Source: Sedimentisphaerales bacterium | GTDB taxonomy: Bacteria; Planctomycetota; Phycisphaerae; Sedimentisphaerales; SM23-30 | Reading direction: 5' to 3' | Assembly: GCA_963663965.2 (NCBI GenBank) | Contig: CAXXFK010000020.1 | Coordinates: 128,001 to 192,000 of the forward strand | DNA: 64,000 nt | Shown here: positions 1,837 through 55,214 of the stretch, in pieces | How positions within the stretch are numbered: the first letter of the stretch is position 1 | How the letters are laid out: each line of letters starts with the position of its first letter | Program-made: the position numbers and the translations under genes | Notes under the pieces: generated by a model | The model's input: the letters and a program-made list of their open reading frames with translations, nothing else | Told to the model about the DNA's origin: nothing | Databases searched by the model: none

Positions 1837-1912
1837 AAGAATCCCCTTAGATTTTTGTATTTCGGTACGGTCATCATGAGGCAATACGGCAAATCCAATA
1901 TTTGAACGGCTT

Positions 1913-2017
1913 TATACTGATTACAATTGAAAATGCCCGCCAAGCTGTGATATAAGTTCTTCATGAGTAAAGACTTATCTTGCGAGCAATCAGGAATTTT
2001 CATACCCATCGGGTATA
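1913..2017 (-). mobile_element. 105-bp dispersed MITE-like repeat, family A, copy 1
   Basis: Reverse complement TATACCCGATGGGTATGAAAATTCCTGA...GGGCATTTTCAATTGTAATCAGTATA aligns end to end with copies at 39736, 44439 and 54715. Confidence 0.8.
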
Positions 2018-2300
2018 AGTATCTTATTGATAATCAGATCGAATCATTACAACGATAACTTTACCTAATTGCCTGACTATGCACTTAACTTGATCGATTT
2101 CATTGAATGGGCACGATTATCGTCTGATAACCAGTATGATTCGCCCGTATTCATCCTTTCATGTTTGCCTGATACACTAAGGAATAAATGGGGTTTCATT
2201 GTATGGGTAATGGCGTTGATCAGGCGAACCGAATCTGCCAGATTGAGTTGTTCTGTCAATCCAATGGGTAAATAGTCAGTATTGAATCTTTGACGTTATT

Positions 2301-3140
2301 TTACTTTTTAATCTCCTGGATGGGGATATCGACCGGTGGTTTGGTGGGGATGCCGAGGGCGTGGAGGGCTTCTTCGCCGTTCTGCTGGGAGAACGTGTTG
2401 AGGGCTTCGTAGCGATTGCAGGCGTAACTAAAGACCTGGTCGTCAGTTACGCTGTGGTCTTTCATCAATTCGGGGAGTCGGTCTTTGATGTATTCGGGGG
2501 CCAGTTTGGCTTCGCTGGGGTGCGTGGGGATTCTGGGGGGGTCGGGGATGTGGACGCGGGGTAAATCGGGAAATGGGTACTCTGGGGGATATCCATTGGG
2601 TTCGTTTGGTTTTTGTTGTAATTGCAACTGTTGCAGGAGCTTAAGATTGGCCTGGAAGGTTCGGTTGAGGTGGGCTTCGTAGCGGGCCAGGCAGTTGAAG
2701 GCGGGGACTTCGAGGGTGAAAGCCGTGCCGACTTCGTTGTGGCGTGGAAGATAGATGCTGGAGTGGGCGAAGGGCTGGTCGATGACGGTGTCTTTGCGGA
2801 TTTCTTCGTTGGTGAGGCGGAGTTTATAGACGCGGGCGTCGATCATTTCGGCTTCGATGCGGCCGATCCGTTCGAGGCGCCAGGCGGCCGAGACGATCTG
2901 GTCGGCGATGTGGCGCTGGAGGTAGGTGGTGGGTTTGAGGTCTTGCAGCAGCGCGGCGCGGAACTCGAGGTAGGTGAGTTCGGATTCGCCGGGGACGATG
3001 AGATGGGCGGGGTCCTGGCCGCTGAGGCCGTGCTTGATGGCGTTTCTGGATGAGATGGCCTTACCTTCGGGGGTTTTGGGGCCGGTGGATTTCTGGGCGT
3101 TGCGACGGTTGGCTCTGAGTCTTCTTAGTGACGATGACAT
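2301..3140 (-). CDS. Conserved hypothetical protein with N-terminal RRNAQKSTGPKTPEGKAISSRNAIKHGL motif, helical core, NEPN motif and Pro-rich tail
   Basis: 279-aa ORF with CAGGAGG RBS. I recognise the motif as a widespread uncharacterised family in Planctomycetes/Acidobacteria. Coding strand is strongly C-rich. Confidence 0.8.
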   Translation of the reverse strand: MSSSLRRLRANRRNAQKSTGPKTPEGKAISSRNAIKHGLSGQDPAHLIVPGESELTYLEFRAALLQDLKPTTYLQRHIADQIVSAAWRLERIGRIEAEMIDARVYKLRLTNEEIRKDTVIDQPFAHSSIYLPRHNEVGTAFTLEVPAFNCLARYEAHLNRTFQANLKLLQQLQLQQKPNEPNGYPPEYPFPDLPRVHIPDPPRIPTHPSEAKLAPEYIKDRLPELMKDHSVTDDQVFSYACNRYEALNTFSQQNGEEALHALGIPTKPPVDIPIQEIKK

Positions 3141-3195
3141 GGTTGGTACCTCCTGTTTAGAAATTTAAAATTTAGAATTTAAAATGCAAAATTGT

Positions 3196-3736
3196 GGTAT
3201 CCGCCTTGGGGCGGATGAGTTTTTAATTTTTGTTAAGCTCATTTCGTTGCTGAGGTTATGGTGATATTTTTTGTCATTGGGTTCGTTTCGTTTTCTGTTG
3301 TTATTCGCTGCGCTCATGGTTTGTTTTATCTATCTCTTTTGCGAGATATCCTGTCGGTACGCCTCTGCGAGGCGTGGATTAAAAATTTCAATCTCATGAT
3401 CGTTACCCAGGGTGGCGCTCGTCCCGTTATACGGGATTCGCTCTACCCTGGGCTGTTTTATGCCGGCCCGTTGGGCCGCTTTGGGTATCCGCCTGCGGCG
3501 GATGTTCGTATAATTTTGGTTAAGTTTCGTTCGTTGTTCAGGTTAGAGTGATATTTTTTTATGTTGGCTTTGTTTCGTTTTGTGTTGGTATTCGCTGCTC
3601 TCATGTTAGTTTTATCTTTCGCCTCCGGTGCGGAATCCTGTCGGTACGCCTCTACGAGGCGTGGGTTTAAAATTAAATTTCAATCTCTATCCGGGGCCTT
3701 ACGGACCCCGGCTAGTTACTTTCGGCTTTTCAAGCC
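3196..3736. repeat. Two imperfect tandem units, period 288 bp (core 3196-3395 and 3484-3687), each followed by a REP-like double hairpin
   Basis: Both cores start GGTATCCGCCT...GGCGGATG and share GTGATATTTTTT, TATTCGCTGC.CTCATG, ATCCTGTCGGTACGCCTCT.CGAGGCGTGG and AAATTTCAATCTC. Confidence 0.9.
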
Positions 3737-4132
3737 TTTTATGGCTGGGTTGTCGGGTTGTGTCATATTTGTATATCCCATTTCATTCGTATTGTTAAAA
3801 CAGCCAAAATAAATTGGCTGGTTGGGCCTGGTTCGTACGCTATCGCACCAAGCCAAGAATGCACCCACAAGCTGCGCTTGAAGGCGCCACGGTTTATGCG
3901 CATAAAATCTCTGTAGGCGTGGCCGGTTGGGTGTGGGGCACACCGGGAGTTCGGGGGCTATTGGGGCGACTTTGGGATTATAGACTGAGTTATTATATTG
4001 GTCAAATTAAAAACAATATTATTATATTATATAACTAATAATTTGTGAACATGCGCATTTGTTTAAGATGGGAAATTCGGTTGACTTGATCTTAAGGGTT
4101 TGTTTTTAAAGATTTATGTTGATTTCAGGAGT

Positions 4133-4160
4133 TGTCAACAAAATAAAATACACTGTGTAT
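4133..4160 (-). repeat. 28-bp motif, copy A (TGTCAACAAAATAAAATACACTGTGTAT)
   Basis: Near-identical to copies at 20818, 29726, 35798 and 37135. Confidence 0.85.
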
Positions 4161-20614: not shown

Positions 20615-20655
20615 GAAGTTATGCCCTGCGGGCATTTTCAATTGTAAATGGTGTA
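20615..20655 (+). repeat. Degenerate right-end fragment of MITE family A
   Basis: GAAGTTAT..GCCCTGCGGGCATTTTCAATTGTAAATGGTGTA resembles the right end of the 105-bp element. Confidence 0.5.
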
Positions 20656-20817
20656 ATATAACAGAATTAAGGCATACTGAATGATCAGATATATTCAGAC
20701 AGAAAACCAAACCATTGAATTTTTCATAGAGAGATCCATCCGGTCTGAATAATAGAAAGAGTCACTCCCGGATTGATGCCGTATTATAGAGCTCAAATTT
20801 TTACTGTTTCCGCTAAA

Positions 20818-20845
20818 ATACACAGTGTTTATTATTTTGTTGACA
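20818..20845 (+). repeat. 28-bp motif, copy B (ATACACAGTGTTTATTATTTTGTTGACA)
   Basis: Exact reverse complement of copies C and E. Confidence 0.85.
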
Positions 20846-29725: not shown

Positions 29726-29753
29726 TGTCAACAAAATAATAAACACTGTGTAT
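29726..29753 (-). repeat. 28-bp motif, copy C (TGTCAACAAAATAATAAACACTGTGTAT)
   Basis: Identical to copy E. GTGTATTTAAT is locally duplicated 15 bp downstream. Confidence 0.85.
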
Positions 29754-35797: not shown

Positions 35798-35825
35798 ATA
35801 CACAGTGTATATTAATTTGTTGACA
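35798..35825 (+). repeat. 28-bp motif, copy D; left boundary of the RAYT module
   Basis: ATACACAGTGTATATTAATTTGTTGACA; 26/28 match to copy B. Confidence 0.85.
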
Positions 35826-35848
35826 ATTCATTTTTCACCCATTATTCT
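35820..35848 (+). promoter_or_regulatory. Sigma70-like promoter for the RAYT gene, with the -35 box supplied by the 28-bp motif
   Basis: TTGACA-N17-TATTCT about 70 bp upstream of ATG 35917 (AAGGAG RBS). Confidence 0.6.
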
Positions 35849-35916
35849 TCAACTATCCAAAGCCCTCATACCAATCATTAATTAGTATATCGTATTTATA
35901 TAAAAGGAGTTACGTT

Positions 35917-36867
35917 ATGTCCTGCCGCCTTCGCTTCAAGCAAACCCGCTTCGCCGCCTTTTACCACGTCTACAGCCGCATCGCCGGCTCACCCGCCGAC
36001 CGCCCACTCCAGCAGCCCAATTGCCGCCGCAAACTCCTCGCCCTCATCCAGCACTACACCCGCGCCTACTGCTGCGAAGTCGCCGCCTTCGCCCTCATGG
36101 GCAACCACTACCACCTTGTCCTCCGCTTCGACCCCAAATCCCAGCTCCCGCCCGCCGAACTCGCCTGCCGCGCCCACCTCCTCTACCCCGGCCCCCACTC
36201 CCAGGAAATCATCGCCAACTGGTCCCCGGCCCAATGGCAGCGCTTCAACGACCGCCTCTTCGACCTCTCCGAGCTCCTCCGCAACCTCCAGGCCCGCTTC
36301 GCCAAATGGTACAACCAGACCTTCGAACGCCGCGGCCGCTTCTGGGCCACGCGCTTCAAGTCAGTATTCCTCAAAGACTTACGCGCCGTCCGCGACTGCA
36401 TGCTCTACGTCGATCTCAACCCCGTCCGCGCCGGCCAGGCCGCCCACCCCGCCGATTACGAGTTCTGCTCCTACCACCATCGCACCCAAAACCGCCACGC
36501 CGCCGCCTGGCTATTACCCCTCCACCAACTCTTCGACCAGCGCACCACCGAGCCCCAGGCCCTCAAAGATTACACCCACCGCCTCACCTACCGCGGCAAC
36601 CTCACACCTTCAGACGCCGACTCCCAGGCCAAACATCCCCCAATCCCCGCCGCCATCCTCGAAGATGAGCAATCCATGGGCTTCGCCCACCCCGGCCTCT
36701 TCCTGCAACAGTTCAAACACTTCATCGACGGGCTGGCCATCGGCTCCGAAACCTACATCCGCCAGCAACTTCAAACCTTCCGACAAACCGGCCAATACCA
36801 CCGCCGCACCAACCCCATCCCACTCCCCACCGGCCTCTTCGCCCTCAAAGCCGTAAGAACAATCTGA
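35917..36867 (+). mobile_element. REP-associated tyrosine transposase-like (HUH/Y1, RAYT/TnpA-REP-type) gene
   Basis: YHVYSR, AFALMGNHYHLV (HUH), WYNQTFERRGRFWATRFKS, YVDLNPVRAG (catalytic Tyr), YEFCSY; extended C-terminus. Confidence 0.92.
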
Positions 36868-37134
36868 GCCTCACTAAATTTAACACATAATAAAATGTTG
36901 TCTTACCCGAAGACTGTCGCATATCTGCCATGTTCTGTAGAAATATTATGACTCTAACCGGTCCAAGACCTCAAATAGAACCATCAGCCCAAGTTTGATT
37001 GATTATAACGCCAAAACCCGGTACATAATTTACTGATTTTTATCCGAAGTACTTGACCGATACCCGGTCGATATACTAATTAATCGGTCCGAAAATTTAT
37101 GATATCCCAATAAATCATAATCAGATACATTCGG

Positions 37135-37162
37135 TGTCAACAAAATAATAAACACTGTGTAT
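37135..37162 (-). repeat. 28-bp motif, copy E; right boundary of the RAYT module
   Basis: TGTCAACAAAATAATAAACACTGTGTAT, inverted relative to copy D. Confidence 0.85.
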
Positions 37163-37310
37163 AATAAAATTTTGAGTGAGAAATGGGGAAAAATCGGTAT
37201 AGTAATGGGGGATGTGTCAGATTGGGCGATACTCGCTACTGATATTTCAATTATTTCATACAAGTTTTCAAGGTTTTCATATTATGGCTGATATTGATAT
37301 TGTTATAGAA

Positions 37311-39502: not shown

Positions 39503-39735
39503 AGAGCGCCTTAATCAGAGTTTATAAGGTTGCCAGCGGTTATGGATCATATCATAACACATCAATTGCCGTGAGAAAATAATTTTTTCATCTGATCCCG
39601 CTTAAAAATTCTACCACGTCACAATCCGCCAGAACCTGAATCAAGTCGCCGGCCAGGGTTGCCACTACTGAAGGAATTAACCATTGCCTCGATCGGAACT
39701 CCATTCAAATTGGTCTGCCATGTTATCATCGATTT

Positions 39736-39840
39736 TATGCCCAATGGGTATGAAAATTCCTGATCGCTCGCAAGATAAGTATTTACCCGTATATAACTTA
39801 TATTACGTCCCAGTGGGCATTTTCAAAGGCAAGCAGTATA
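39736..39840 (+). mobile_element. 105-bp MITE-like repeat, family A, copy 2
   Basis: TATGCCCAATGGGTATGAAAATTCCTGATCGCTCGCAAGATAAG...GGGCATTTTCAAAGGCAAGCAGTATA. Confidence 0.8.
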
Positions 39841-44429: not shown

Positions 44430-44438
44430 GAAAAATTT

Positions 44439-44543
44439 TATCCCCAATGGTTATAAAAATTCCCGATCGCTCGCAAGATAAGATTTTACTTGCGTAGAAC
44501 TTATATCACGGCCTAGCGGGCATTTTCAATGGCAAGCAGTATA
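44439..44543 (+). mobile_element. 105-bp MITE-like repeat, family A, copy 3
   Basis: TATCCCCAATGGTTATAAAAATTCCCGATCGCTCGCAAGATAAG...CGGGCATTTTCAATGGCAAGCAGTATA, between the infC stop and its terminator. Confidence 0.8.
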
Positions 44544-54631: not shown

Positions 54632-54714
54632 CCAGGCGGGCGGTACCATTTCTTGTCCTGGATCGAGACCAGACCGTTAGCCTCCTTGTTAACGGCAATA
54701 ACACCTACTTAATC

Positions 54715-54818
54715 TATCCCCAATGGGTATAAAAATTCCCGATCGCTTGCAAGATAAGTATCTGCCCGTGTAGAAGTTATACACGGGCCTGCGAGCGTTT
54801 TCAATTGTAACCAGTACA
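54715..54818 (+). mobile_element. MITE-like repeat, family A, copy 4 (104 bp)
   Basis: TATCCCCAATGGGTATAAAAATTCCCGATCGCTTGCAAGATAAG...GCGTTTTCAATTGTAACCAGTACA. Confidence 0.8.
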
Positions 54819-55214
54819 AATTCCCCCTGACTATTGGAATCCTGATACGGCTCTATTGCTAACGAGTAGGAATAAAGGGCATCTCTAACAATTCATTTTG
54901 GGCTGTAAACGGTCTGATTTTCTTCTGAACTGCGTCAACAAGAACCGTGAATATGACAAATATGCCCGTTTTTTGTTCCTTGCCCGAGAAAAATACCCCA
55001 CGCTTTCGCCTTTAAAACTATTTTCAGGGGCACCTTTAAAATCAACAAATTTTTTACATTATCCGAACTACTTTTCAATTATATACGTTATATAATTAGT
55101 ATAGAGACTTGAAAATTAATTTGAACGGGCTATGGCCAATCCGATGATGATAAAGCCTGATACTCAAGAACTCCCAGTGTTTGAAGGCAGCGGATTAACG
55201 GCGAGGATAACGCT

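Follow-up and report, generated by a model that had tools for sequence, protein, structure and literature searches.

What kind of element is a RAYT-like transposase gene that stands between two copies of a 28-bp inverted repeat, and how did further copies of that repeat come to be scattered through the same genome? The question is raised by a locus in the 64,000-nucleotide stretch of DNA analysed here (‘the window’), which belongs to a genome of 7.24 Mb in 42 contigs (94.6% complete). The original prediction had described a 1365-bp module with 28-bp inverted repeats around an intact gene, had proposed it as an undescribed system, and had contrasted it with known Y1 enzymes, which were said not to use terminal inverted repeats (TIRs). 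The module is as described, and its two ends match at 26 of 28 positions. The novelty is not: the names ‘TIRYT’ and ‘TIRtron’ were given in 2013 (PMC3733652) to RAYT-like genes with flanking TIRs, a common GGGGWSAS motif and TIR families scattered through the genome, and the available text of that paper, together with that of the paper describing subclass 2.1 (PMC6006769), also contradicts the statement that Y1 enzymes do not use TIRs.

Anatomy of the element

The module opens with the left TIR (35798..35825, + strand), apparently an AT-rich variant of the GGGACAG...TTGAC left end of TIRYTs, continues through a leader, a gene for a transposase of 316 amino acids (35917..36867, + strand) and a 3′ spacer of 267 bp (36868..37134, + strand), and closes with the right TIR (37135..37162, − strand). 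Its neighbours are a GH106 gene (E 3e-70) and a weak GH43 match (E 1e-6, below the cut-off), both oriented away from it. Strand composition within the gene (35917-36867) is extreme, C making up 47% of all bases and 73% of those in third codon positions; the orthologue at locus L011, unlike the window gene, is G/T-rich.

The inner end of the left repeat is TTGACA, with TATTCT 17 bp further on, and the predicted promoter that results (TTGACA-17-TATTCT; 35820..35848, + strand; 10/12 to consensus) overlaps the TIR, as was anticipated when the repeat was said to supply the −35 box of the gene. A TAnnnT-type −10 element at 17 bp is present in six of seven gene-left ends and is not enriched in the lone ends discussed below. 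Because the left end overlaps the predicted −35 box, repression of the gene by its own enzyme is plausible. In the right TIR, an outward promoter-like match (TCAACA-17-TATAAT; 37137..37165, + strand; a consensus match only) lies about 47 bp before the GH43-like open reading frame.

The leader carries a 16-bp inner box 51 bp inside the left TIR (35877..35892, + strand; z 5.3 against the right end), and an exact inverted copy of that box stands 50 bp inside the right TIR (37069..37084, − strand). The box thus recurs in inverse orientation at nearly equal distance inside both TIRs, the right-end box being particular to the window copy. In run X3 of the source sample, the homology of one gene copy breaks at about this box.

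Two expected features of better known Y1 systems had been reported missing, and both absences were upheld: PF07282, the mark of tnpB, does not occur in the genome (94.6% complete), and the near non-coding flanks contain a single GTAG (18 in the locus against 15.5 expected), with no GTAG-footed REP hairpins. The end repeat itself forms no consistent hairpin. The 3′ spacer folds no better than its shuffles (z -1.13), and an Rfam search of the window, spacer included, returned no match; on these two results a guide or structured RNA in the spacer was rejected. No target duplication is consistent over the four two-ended copies in the genome (a 5-bp match occurs at one of the four), and duplication was rejected.

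The enzyme and its placement

The gene product is a RAYT-like Y1 enzyme, as first proposed; it matches Pfam Y1_Tnp (E 3e-6), possesses the catalytic residues (motifs H64-Y-H66, W143 and Y164) and is predicted to adopt a TnpA-REP-like fold. Across 60 aligned relatives, in which no Pfam family other than Y1_Tnp was found, H64, H66, W143, Y164 and N168 are nearly invariant. The protein scores below cut-off with the NCBIfam models for REP-associated enzymes (NF047646; 51 bits against 80) and for IS200 (NF033573; 14 bits against 55). An AlphaFold model (pLDDT 91.7) finds its best structural match in E. coli TnpA-REP (4er8; E 2e-6), on which it superimposes with a Z score of 15.9 over 161 residues at 2.4 Å.

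Both the NHYH and the YVDLNP signatures are present (N63-H66 and Y164), and the W motif reads WA, not WE. The distance from the histidine motif to the catalytic tyrosine is 98 residues, about 41 above that of subclass 2.1; it spans 94-99 in the clade of the window protein and 57-59 in subclass 2.1, and 105-113 in most rows of subclass 2.3 (one row has 99), those reference rows having been assigned by organism and signature and not by the profiles of Quentin et al. Placement in a Y1/TnpA-REP phylogeny, which had been suggested as a check, was carried out with two quick tree searches, with and without the insertion (the first left out seven rows missed by the motif pattern). The window protein falls in a separate clade of its own (SH-aLRT 99 and 96), sister to subclass 2.3: the gammaproteobacterial 2.3 clade (support 99 and 100) adjoins it, and the short 2.1-type proteins stand apart.

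Kinship of the end repeat

The published GGGGWSAS motif is not found literally in the window ends (ATACACAG/AAACACAG). These ends are in register with the end AGGGACAGT-N13-TTGAC that one of the genome’s classical TIRYTs has, where ACAGT, 13 bases and TTGAC occupy exactly the register of the window repeat. Judged by that alignment, the 28-bp repeat appears to be an AT-rich form of the GGGACAG end of TIRYTs, kept in register with it. Two classical TIRYT families (with GGGACAGTCA and GGGTCAGGAACC ends) coexist in the genome with several other genes, of the RAYT or class 1/3 Y1 type, that have repeats of their own (C13:10948; C11:18105, C22:74056, C28:556367 and C30:159531); two copies have a partial gene duplication upstream of the left end.

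The flanks of homologues, whose inspection had likewise been proposed, tell of the same kinship. A close orthologue was found in one of 24 same-family genomes (47% identity); its GGGACAG-type TIRs, which match each other at 12/12 positions, lie 115 bp ahead of the start and 217 bp beyond the stop. In those clade loci whose flanks were long enough, GGGAC[AG] is present upstream in 15/21 (1/21 in a reverse-orientation control), downstream in 8/16 (control 5/16) and at both ends in 6/13. Short stuttered repeats lie just outside the GGGACA ends of L014, L032, L049, L076 and L078, and no such repeats are evident beside the AT-rich ends in the present genome. At three of seven gammaproteobacterial 2.3 loci (L175, L176 and L180), GACA-type inverted ends that score above all shuffles were observed 178-268 bp after the stop.

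The window version of the repeat is tied to the gene, standing at seven of its eight copies and occurring in none of 60 relatives; a search of JGI metagenomes gave 0 records. The orthologue’s end, sought as an exact 11-mer in its genome (70% complete), gave two hits, both at the gene, and no lone copies. Taken together, the empty relatives, the empty metagenome search and the lack of lone copies of the orthologue’s end indicate that expansion of the repeat was local. A host transcription-factor site conserved in the lineage was rejected as an identity for the repeat on its absence from all 60 relatives.

Within the available text of PMC6006769, 20 of 26 TIRYT examples fall in subclass 2.1 and none in 2.3. 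The literature searched (from which subscription journals were largely absent) yielded no experimental test of any TIRYT and no TIR ends for subclass 2.3, and the words TIRYT and TIRtron appeared in it, as far as its available text goes, only in PMC3733652 and PMC6006769.

Gene copies in the genome

The transposase gene is present at eight loci, whose products are 73-97% identical to the window protein (six genes unbroken, two frameshifted). Homology among the copies begins at the left repeat in 7/8 and ends within the last codons in 8/8. The left end is present in seven copies and both ends in four: a full inverted repeat lies 282-330 bp past the last shared codons at four loci, a degenerate one at 38 bp at one locus, and none at three. 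The two-ended copies are similar in length (1365-1416 bp, n=4).

The spacers and the genes of these copies differ in their relationships. Two copies (C25 and C30) differ at a single position in 389 columns that extend to 5 bp beyond the right TIR, and the spacer of a third (C33) is a diverged homologue of theirs (z about 5); the remaining spacers are unrelated, that of the window copy being unrelated to those of all seven others. The genes are mosaics of common tracts, and the C30 gene is 99.6% identical to a copy with different flanks, against 96.9% to the copy that shares its spacer. From this pattern we infer that the copies exchange sequence by gene conversion among resident copies, which would explain how near-identical genes come to have unrelated spacers.

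The window locus was found, as contigs, in the source sample only; unitigs from that sample support each half, and join the 3′ end of the gene to the right TIR; none spans the gene. The original prediction had pointed to empty sites and circular junctions as informative, and no circle or empty-site joint was present among the matches listed for assembled contigs of one study; around seven GH106 loci in five relatives, no GH43 or transposase match lies within 1.5 kb. Insertion beside a resident lone end, considered as a general origin of right TIRs, was weakened by the right TIRs that other genomes have 150-270 bp after the stop. For the window copy itself, whose right end shares the 16-bp leader box, such an origin is possible. 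At three of the four two-ended copies (G000 C20:163917, C25:218435 and C1:253069) the replication-strand signal weakly switches sign from one side to the other, which could reflect rearrangement, misjoins or divergent gene clusters.

Dispersed copies of the end

A profile built from the genome’s own hits finds 56 sites at or above 24 bits, and none in either the reversed or the locally shuffled genome. Beyond the gene copies there are 45, of which 21 are ‘lone’ and 24 head a shared non-coding leader of repeated modules, in most cases the module of the 279-amino-acid protein described below. The claim that three more solo copies occur in the window stood as to their number; one of the three (copy A, 4133..4160, − strand) proved not to be solo and heads a repeated 1.9-kb module. 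The others are lone ends: copy B in a divergent intergenic region (20818..20845, + strand), and copy C between purF and truD, upstream of the conserved promoter of purF (29726..29753, − strand). An unrelated repeat of about 110 bp was also noticed in the window (1911-2018, 39732-39840, 44435-44543, 54711-54819 and 20623-20658); its core has about 60 genome hits, with a strand bias of 39/49.

The lone ends average 87% identity to each other and have unrelated flanks. Like the module-heading ends, they have a second box, located 14-15 bp inward of TTGACA (p 5e-4, with a profile trained on module-heading ends only and scored on 24 lone and right ends). On that box, on the lack of short inward-facing pairs and on the strand bias given below, they are judged to be left-type. 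No gene remnants were found after them, and short inward-facing, gene-less pairs of ends do not occur in the genome, so MITE- or REPIN-like dimers at short range were rejected.

In placement, the lone ends favour divergent intergenic regions (15/21, against 35% of AT-matched intergenic positions; p 7e-4, with mechanical calls of open reading frames), and the genes beside them have no evident common function. In orientation, they lie on the C-rich strand at 15 of the 17 sites that could be scored (p 0.002, by a third-position measure that removes gene orientation), and AT-rich TTGACA control sites do so at 348/692 (by total skew). This bias fits targeting of the lagging-strand template and is not specific, being seen also in four other repeat sets (two REP-like families, the D2 repeat and the second module described below). 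Lagging-strand-template targeting is noted for IS608 and ISDra2 (PMC6006769, available text).

An outward −10 match of at least 5/6 accompanies 15 of the 32 gene-end and lone copies and one of the 24 module-heading copies. IHF-like sites occur on the inner side in 13/24 cases and on the outer side in 5/24 (shuffle mean 5.4, maximum 11), and are no more than a lead because the same box may be a −10 element. A DnaA box at the outer edge was rejected, being present at 10 of 56 copies among 492 matches in the genome.

Repeated modules headed by the end

The module headed by copy A is about 1.9 kb long (window 2200-4160, − strand, with 25 other loci in the genome) and includes a strong promoter match and embedded REP-like repeats. 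It encodes a helical protein of 279 amino acids of unassigned function (the ‘STGP’ family; 2301..3140, − strand; 26 copies at 92-98% identity), a possible passenger of the end repeat. The protein matches no Pfam family and no known fold (helical model, pTM 0.57); its homologues, more than 1000 in number, are widespread and unannotated. STGP as its own transposase was considered, and these searches gave the idea no support, a missing match being no evidence against it. A strong end lies within 3 kb upstream of 13 of the 26 full STGP copies and a weak end upstream of five more, and no inverted end was seen close downstream of any of the 26. A hairpin about 80 bp past the stop, four of whose six pairs show compensatory changes (12 of 26 copies aligned), closes the module. 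At 11 loci in other genomes, no TIRYT end is close to an STGP homologue. The STGP module may itself be an independent mobile element.

A second module was also observed, with about 13 copies at 79-83% DNA identity and an unannotated open reading frame of 180-235 amino acids (C1:378998, + strand; C30:124690, − strand; 11 others). Its AT-rich promoter leader is apparently the one found in the STGP module, and the end repeat is present in two of its 13 copies.

The best explanation and its alternatives

On balance the element is probably a TIRtron. Its enzyme is predicted to use the 28-bp end as a recognition site, and has likely spread that end through the genome by nicking and rejoining single-stranded DNA. 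The proposal draws by analogy on TnpA-REP, a monomer described as cutting on either side of its site and far from it, with strand transfer (PMC3479197, available text). At the replication fork, where DNA lies exposed, the enzyme would nick close to the T-rich outer edge of the end and would transfer the end with a variable length of adjoining inner DNA, so that two-ended modules, lone left-type ends and ends heading other modules could all arise by one route. The gene copies would now be mostly resident, exchanging sequence by gene conversion. In favour of this reading are the nearly invariant HUH, W and Y residues, the TnpA-REP-like model, the link of the ends to the gene, the left-type and strand-biased lone ends and the mosaic genes; against it stand the lack of specificity of the strand bias, the weaker support for the right end in the clade, the lack of lone copies of the orthologue’s end, of a consistent hairpin and of a consistent target duplication, and the frameshifts in two of the eight genes. 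A more ambitious form of this proposal, speculative and improbable, is that a hairpin-free HUH/Y1 enzyme performs one-ended, replication-strand-biased transfer from a single 28-bp end, and that it has thereby amplified STGP (26 copies, with a covarying hairpin in place of a second TIR) and seeded some 20 promoter-bearing ends in divergent promoter regions; it would amount to Helitron/ISCR-like gene capture and promoter seeding for a RAYT branch. Helitrons and ISCR elements provide parallels to one-ended gene capture. If the enzyme does move single ends together with passengers, relatives of RAYTs would drive the amplification of genes and the turnover of promoters; if it does not, the element is one more member of a common and understudied class.

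The scattered ends could also owe their present distribution to selection and not to transfer. They may have derived from a TIRtron and now be kept as regulatory sites (operators or portable promoters), bound by a domesticated enzyme or a host factor, with mobility largely past; the excess of lone ends in divergent intergenic regions, their 87% identity between unrelated flanks and the frequent outward −10 matches all suit this account. It is nevertheless improbable, given that inward −10 elements are not enriched in the lone ends, that purF retains its own conserved promoter downstream of copy C, that the neighbouring genes have no evident common function, and that the outward −10 matches are due in part to AT-rich flanks and are found in a single module-heading copy. 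Somewhat less probable still is a plain two-ended insertion element whose lone ends are decayed complete copies, an idea that agrees with the four two-ended gene copies of similar length, with the one copy whose right end is degenerate and another whose homologous spacer has decayed, and with the long 3′ spacers and TIRs of relatives. Decay should leave left and right ends on both strands; the lone ends, however, divide 15:2 and carry the left-type second box, they are not followed by gene remnants, and they are much better conserved than their flanks.

The original prediction had raised a further use for paired sites, namely the movement of DNA between copies B and C, which face inward and are identical over 30 bp. 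As a general account, in which site-specific recombination by the enzyme moves or inverts stretches of host DNA (the 8.9 kb from B to C being one example), it could also draw on the weak change of replication-strand signal across three of four two-ended copies. The interval itself argues otherwise, and makes this account very improbable: it contains purM, purF, an MTHFR-domain gene, a histidine kinase and a HAD hydrolase (a housekeeping set), and in 5 of 15 same-family relatives purF and truD are divergent neighbours on either side of the copy C position, keeping the synteny that a composite or cargo-carrying unit would break. That synteny, with the promoter of purF conserved downstream of C, marks copy C as an insert in an old intergenic region and not a junction. 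No inversion or excision junction at B or C was present among the matches listed, and inversions at the repeat were set aside on finding skew breakpoints unenriched near it (2/33 within 5 kb, against 2.0 expected). It is just as improbable that the pairing of left flank and right end in the window is an assembly join through a collapsed repeat. Depth is low, the gene collapses in the unitigs with no piece spanning it, its copies are mosaic, and the skew changes sign across the locus; yet the unitigs support both left flank, TIR and leader, and gene end, spacer and TIR, with 0 differences each, and the orthologue, present once in another genome, is likewise laid out between two TIRs. A misjoin would in any case alter the pairing of flanks and not the architecture.

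Comparison with known systems

As a member of the TIRtrons the element offers a natural test set, with six unbroken genes and 56 end variants in three contexts (gene ends, lone ends and module heads), and it extends TIR ends to the insertion-bearing 2.3 branch, previously reported (in the available text of PMC6006769) only as having ‘no REP’. With IS200/IS605 TnpA it shares HUH/Y1 chemistry and a strand bias that fits lagging-strand-template targeting; it differs in that its protein is twice as long as those enzymes (about 150 amino acids) and has YxxxNP instead of YxxxQ, in that its ends are inverted repeats and not hairpins, and in having no tnpB. E. coli TnpA-REP, or ‘REPtron’ (PMC3479197 and PMC8266576, available text), is the closest solved fold and likewise has a gene bracketed by inverted, dispersed recognition sites. 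Unlike it, the present system lacks the GTAG foot and the GC-rich hairpin, and has a protein about 150 residues longer, a multicopy gene and a score below the NF047646 cut-off. The REP-associated RAYTs of subclasses 2.2 and 2.5 are set apart from it by their flanking GTAG-footed hairpin REPs.

Subclass 2.1 (the group 1 RAYTs of Bertels, and the main TIRYT group) resembles the element in its GGGACAG-type ends with TTGAC in the left end, and has classical members in the same genome, but its proteins have no core insertion (His-to-Tyr distance 57-59) and often bear an HTH or DnaA_C tail (HTH/DnaA_C-like in 2.1.2). The likeness to subclass 2.3, as described in the available text of PMC6006769, is in the protein: NHYH and YVDLNP, about 320 amino acids, an insertion that separates the HUH motif from the catalytic tyrosine, a long C-terminal tail, several copies per genome and no REPs. 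The conserved insertion of that subclass is 55 amino acids long and its His-to-Tyr distance about 110, against 98 in the window protein, which lies outside the Alteromonadales-type clade in a separate supported clade. Ends are not reported for subclass 2.3 in that text, whereas the window element has TIRs.

The TIRtrons, or TIRYTs, of PMC3733652 (available text) share with the window element a RAYT-like gene with inverted repeats that are not REPs, a dispersed repeat family (as some of them have), and probably an end homologous to the GGGGWSAS motif seen in some, not all, of the described TIRs. The present system differs from them in that the GGG run has drifted to ATA/AAA, departing from the literal published consensus, and in that TTGACA is found in both ends and in all lone copies. 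Its ends are dispersed as single copies, mostly of one type, and not as dimers or clusters, its gene is present in eight copies, and its end also heads a second multicopy gene.
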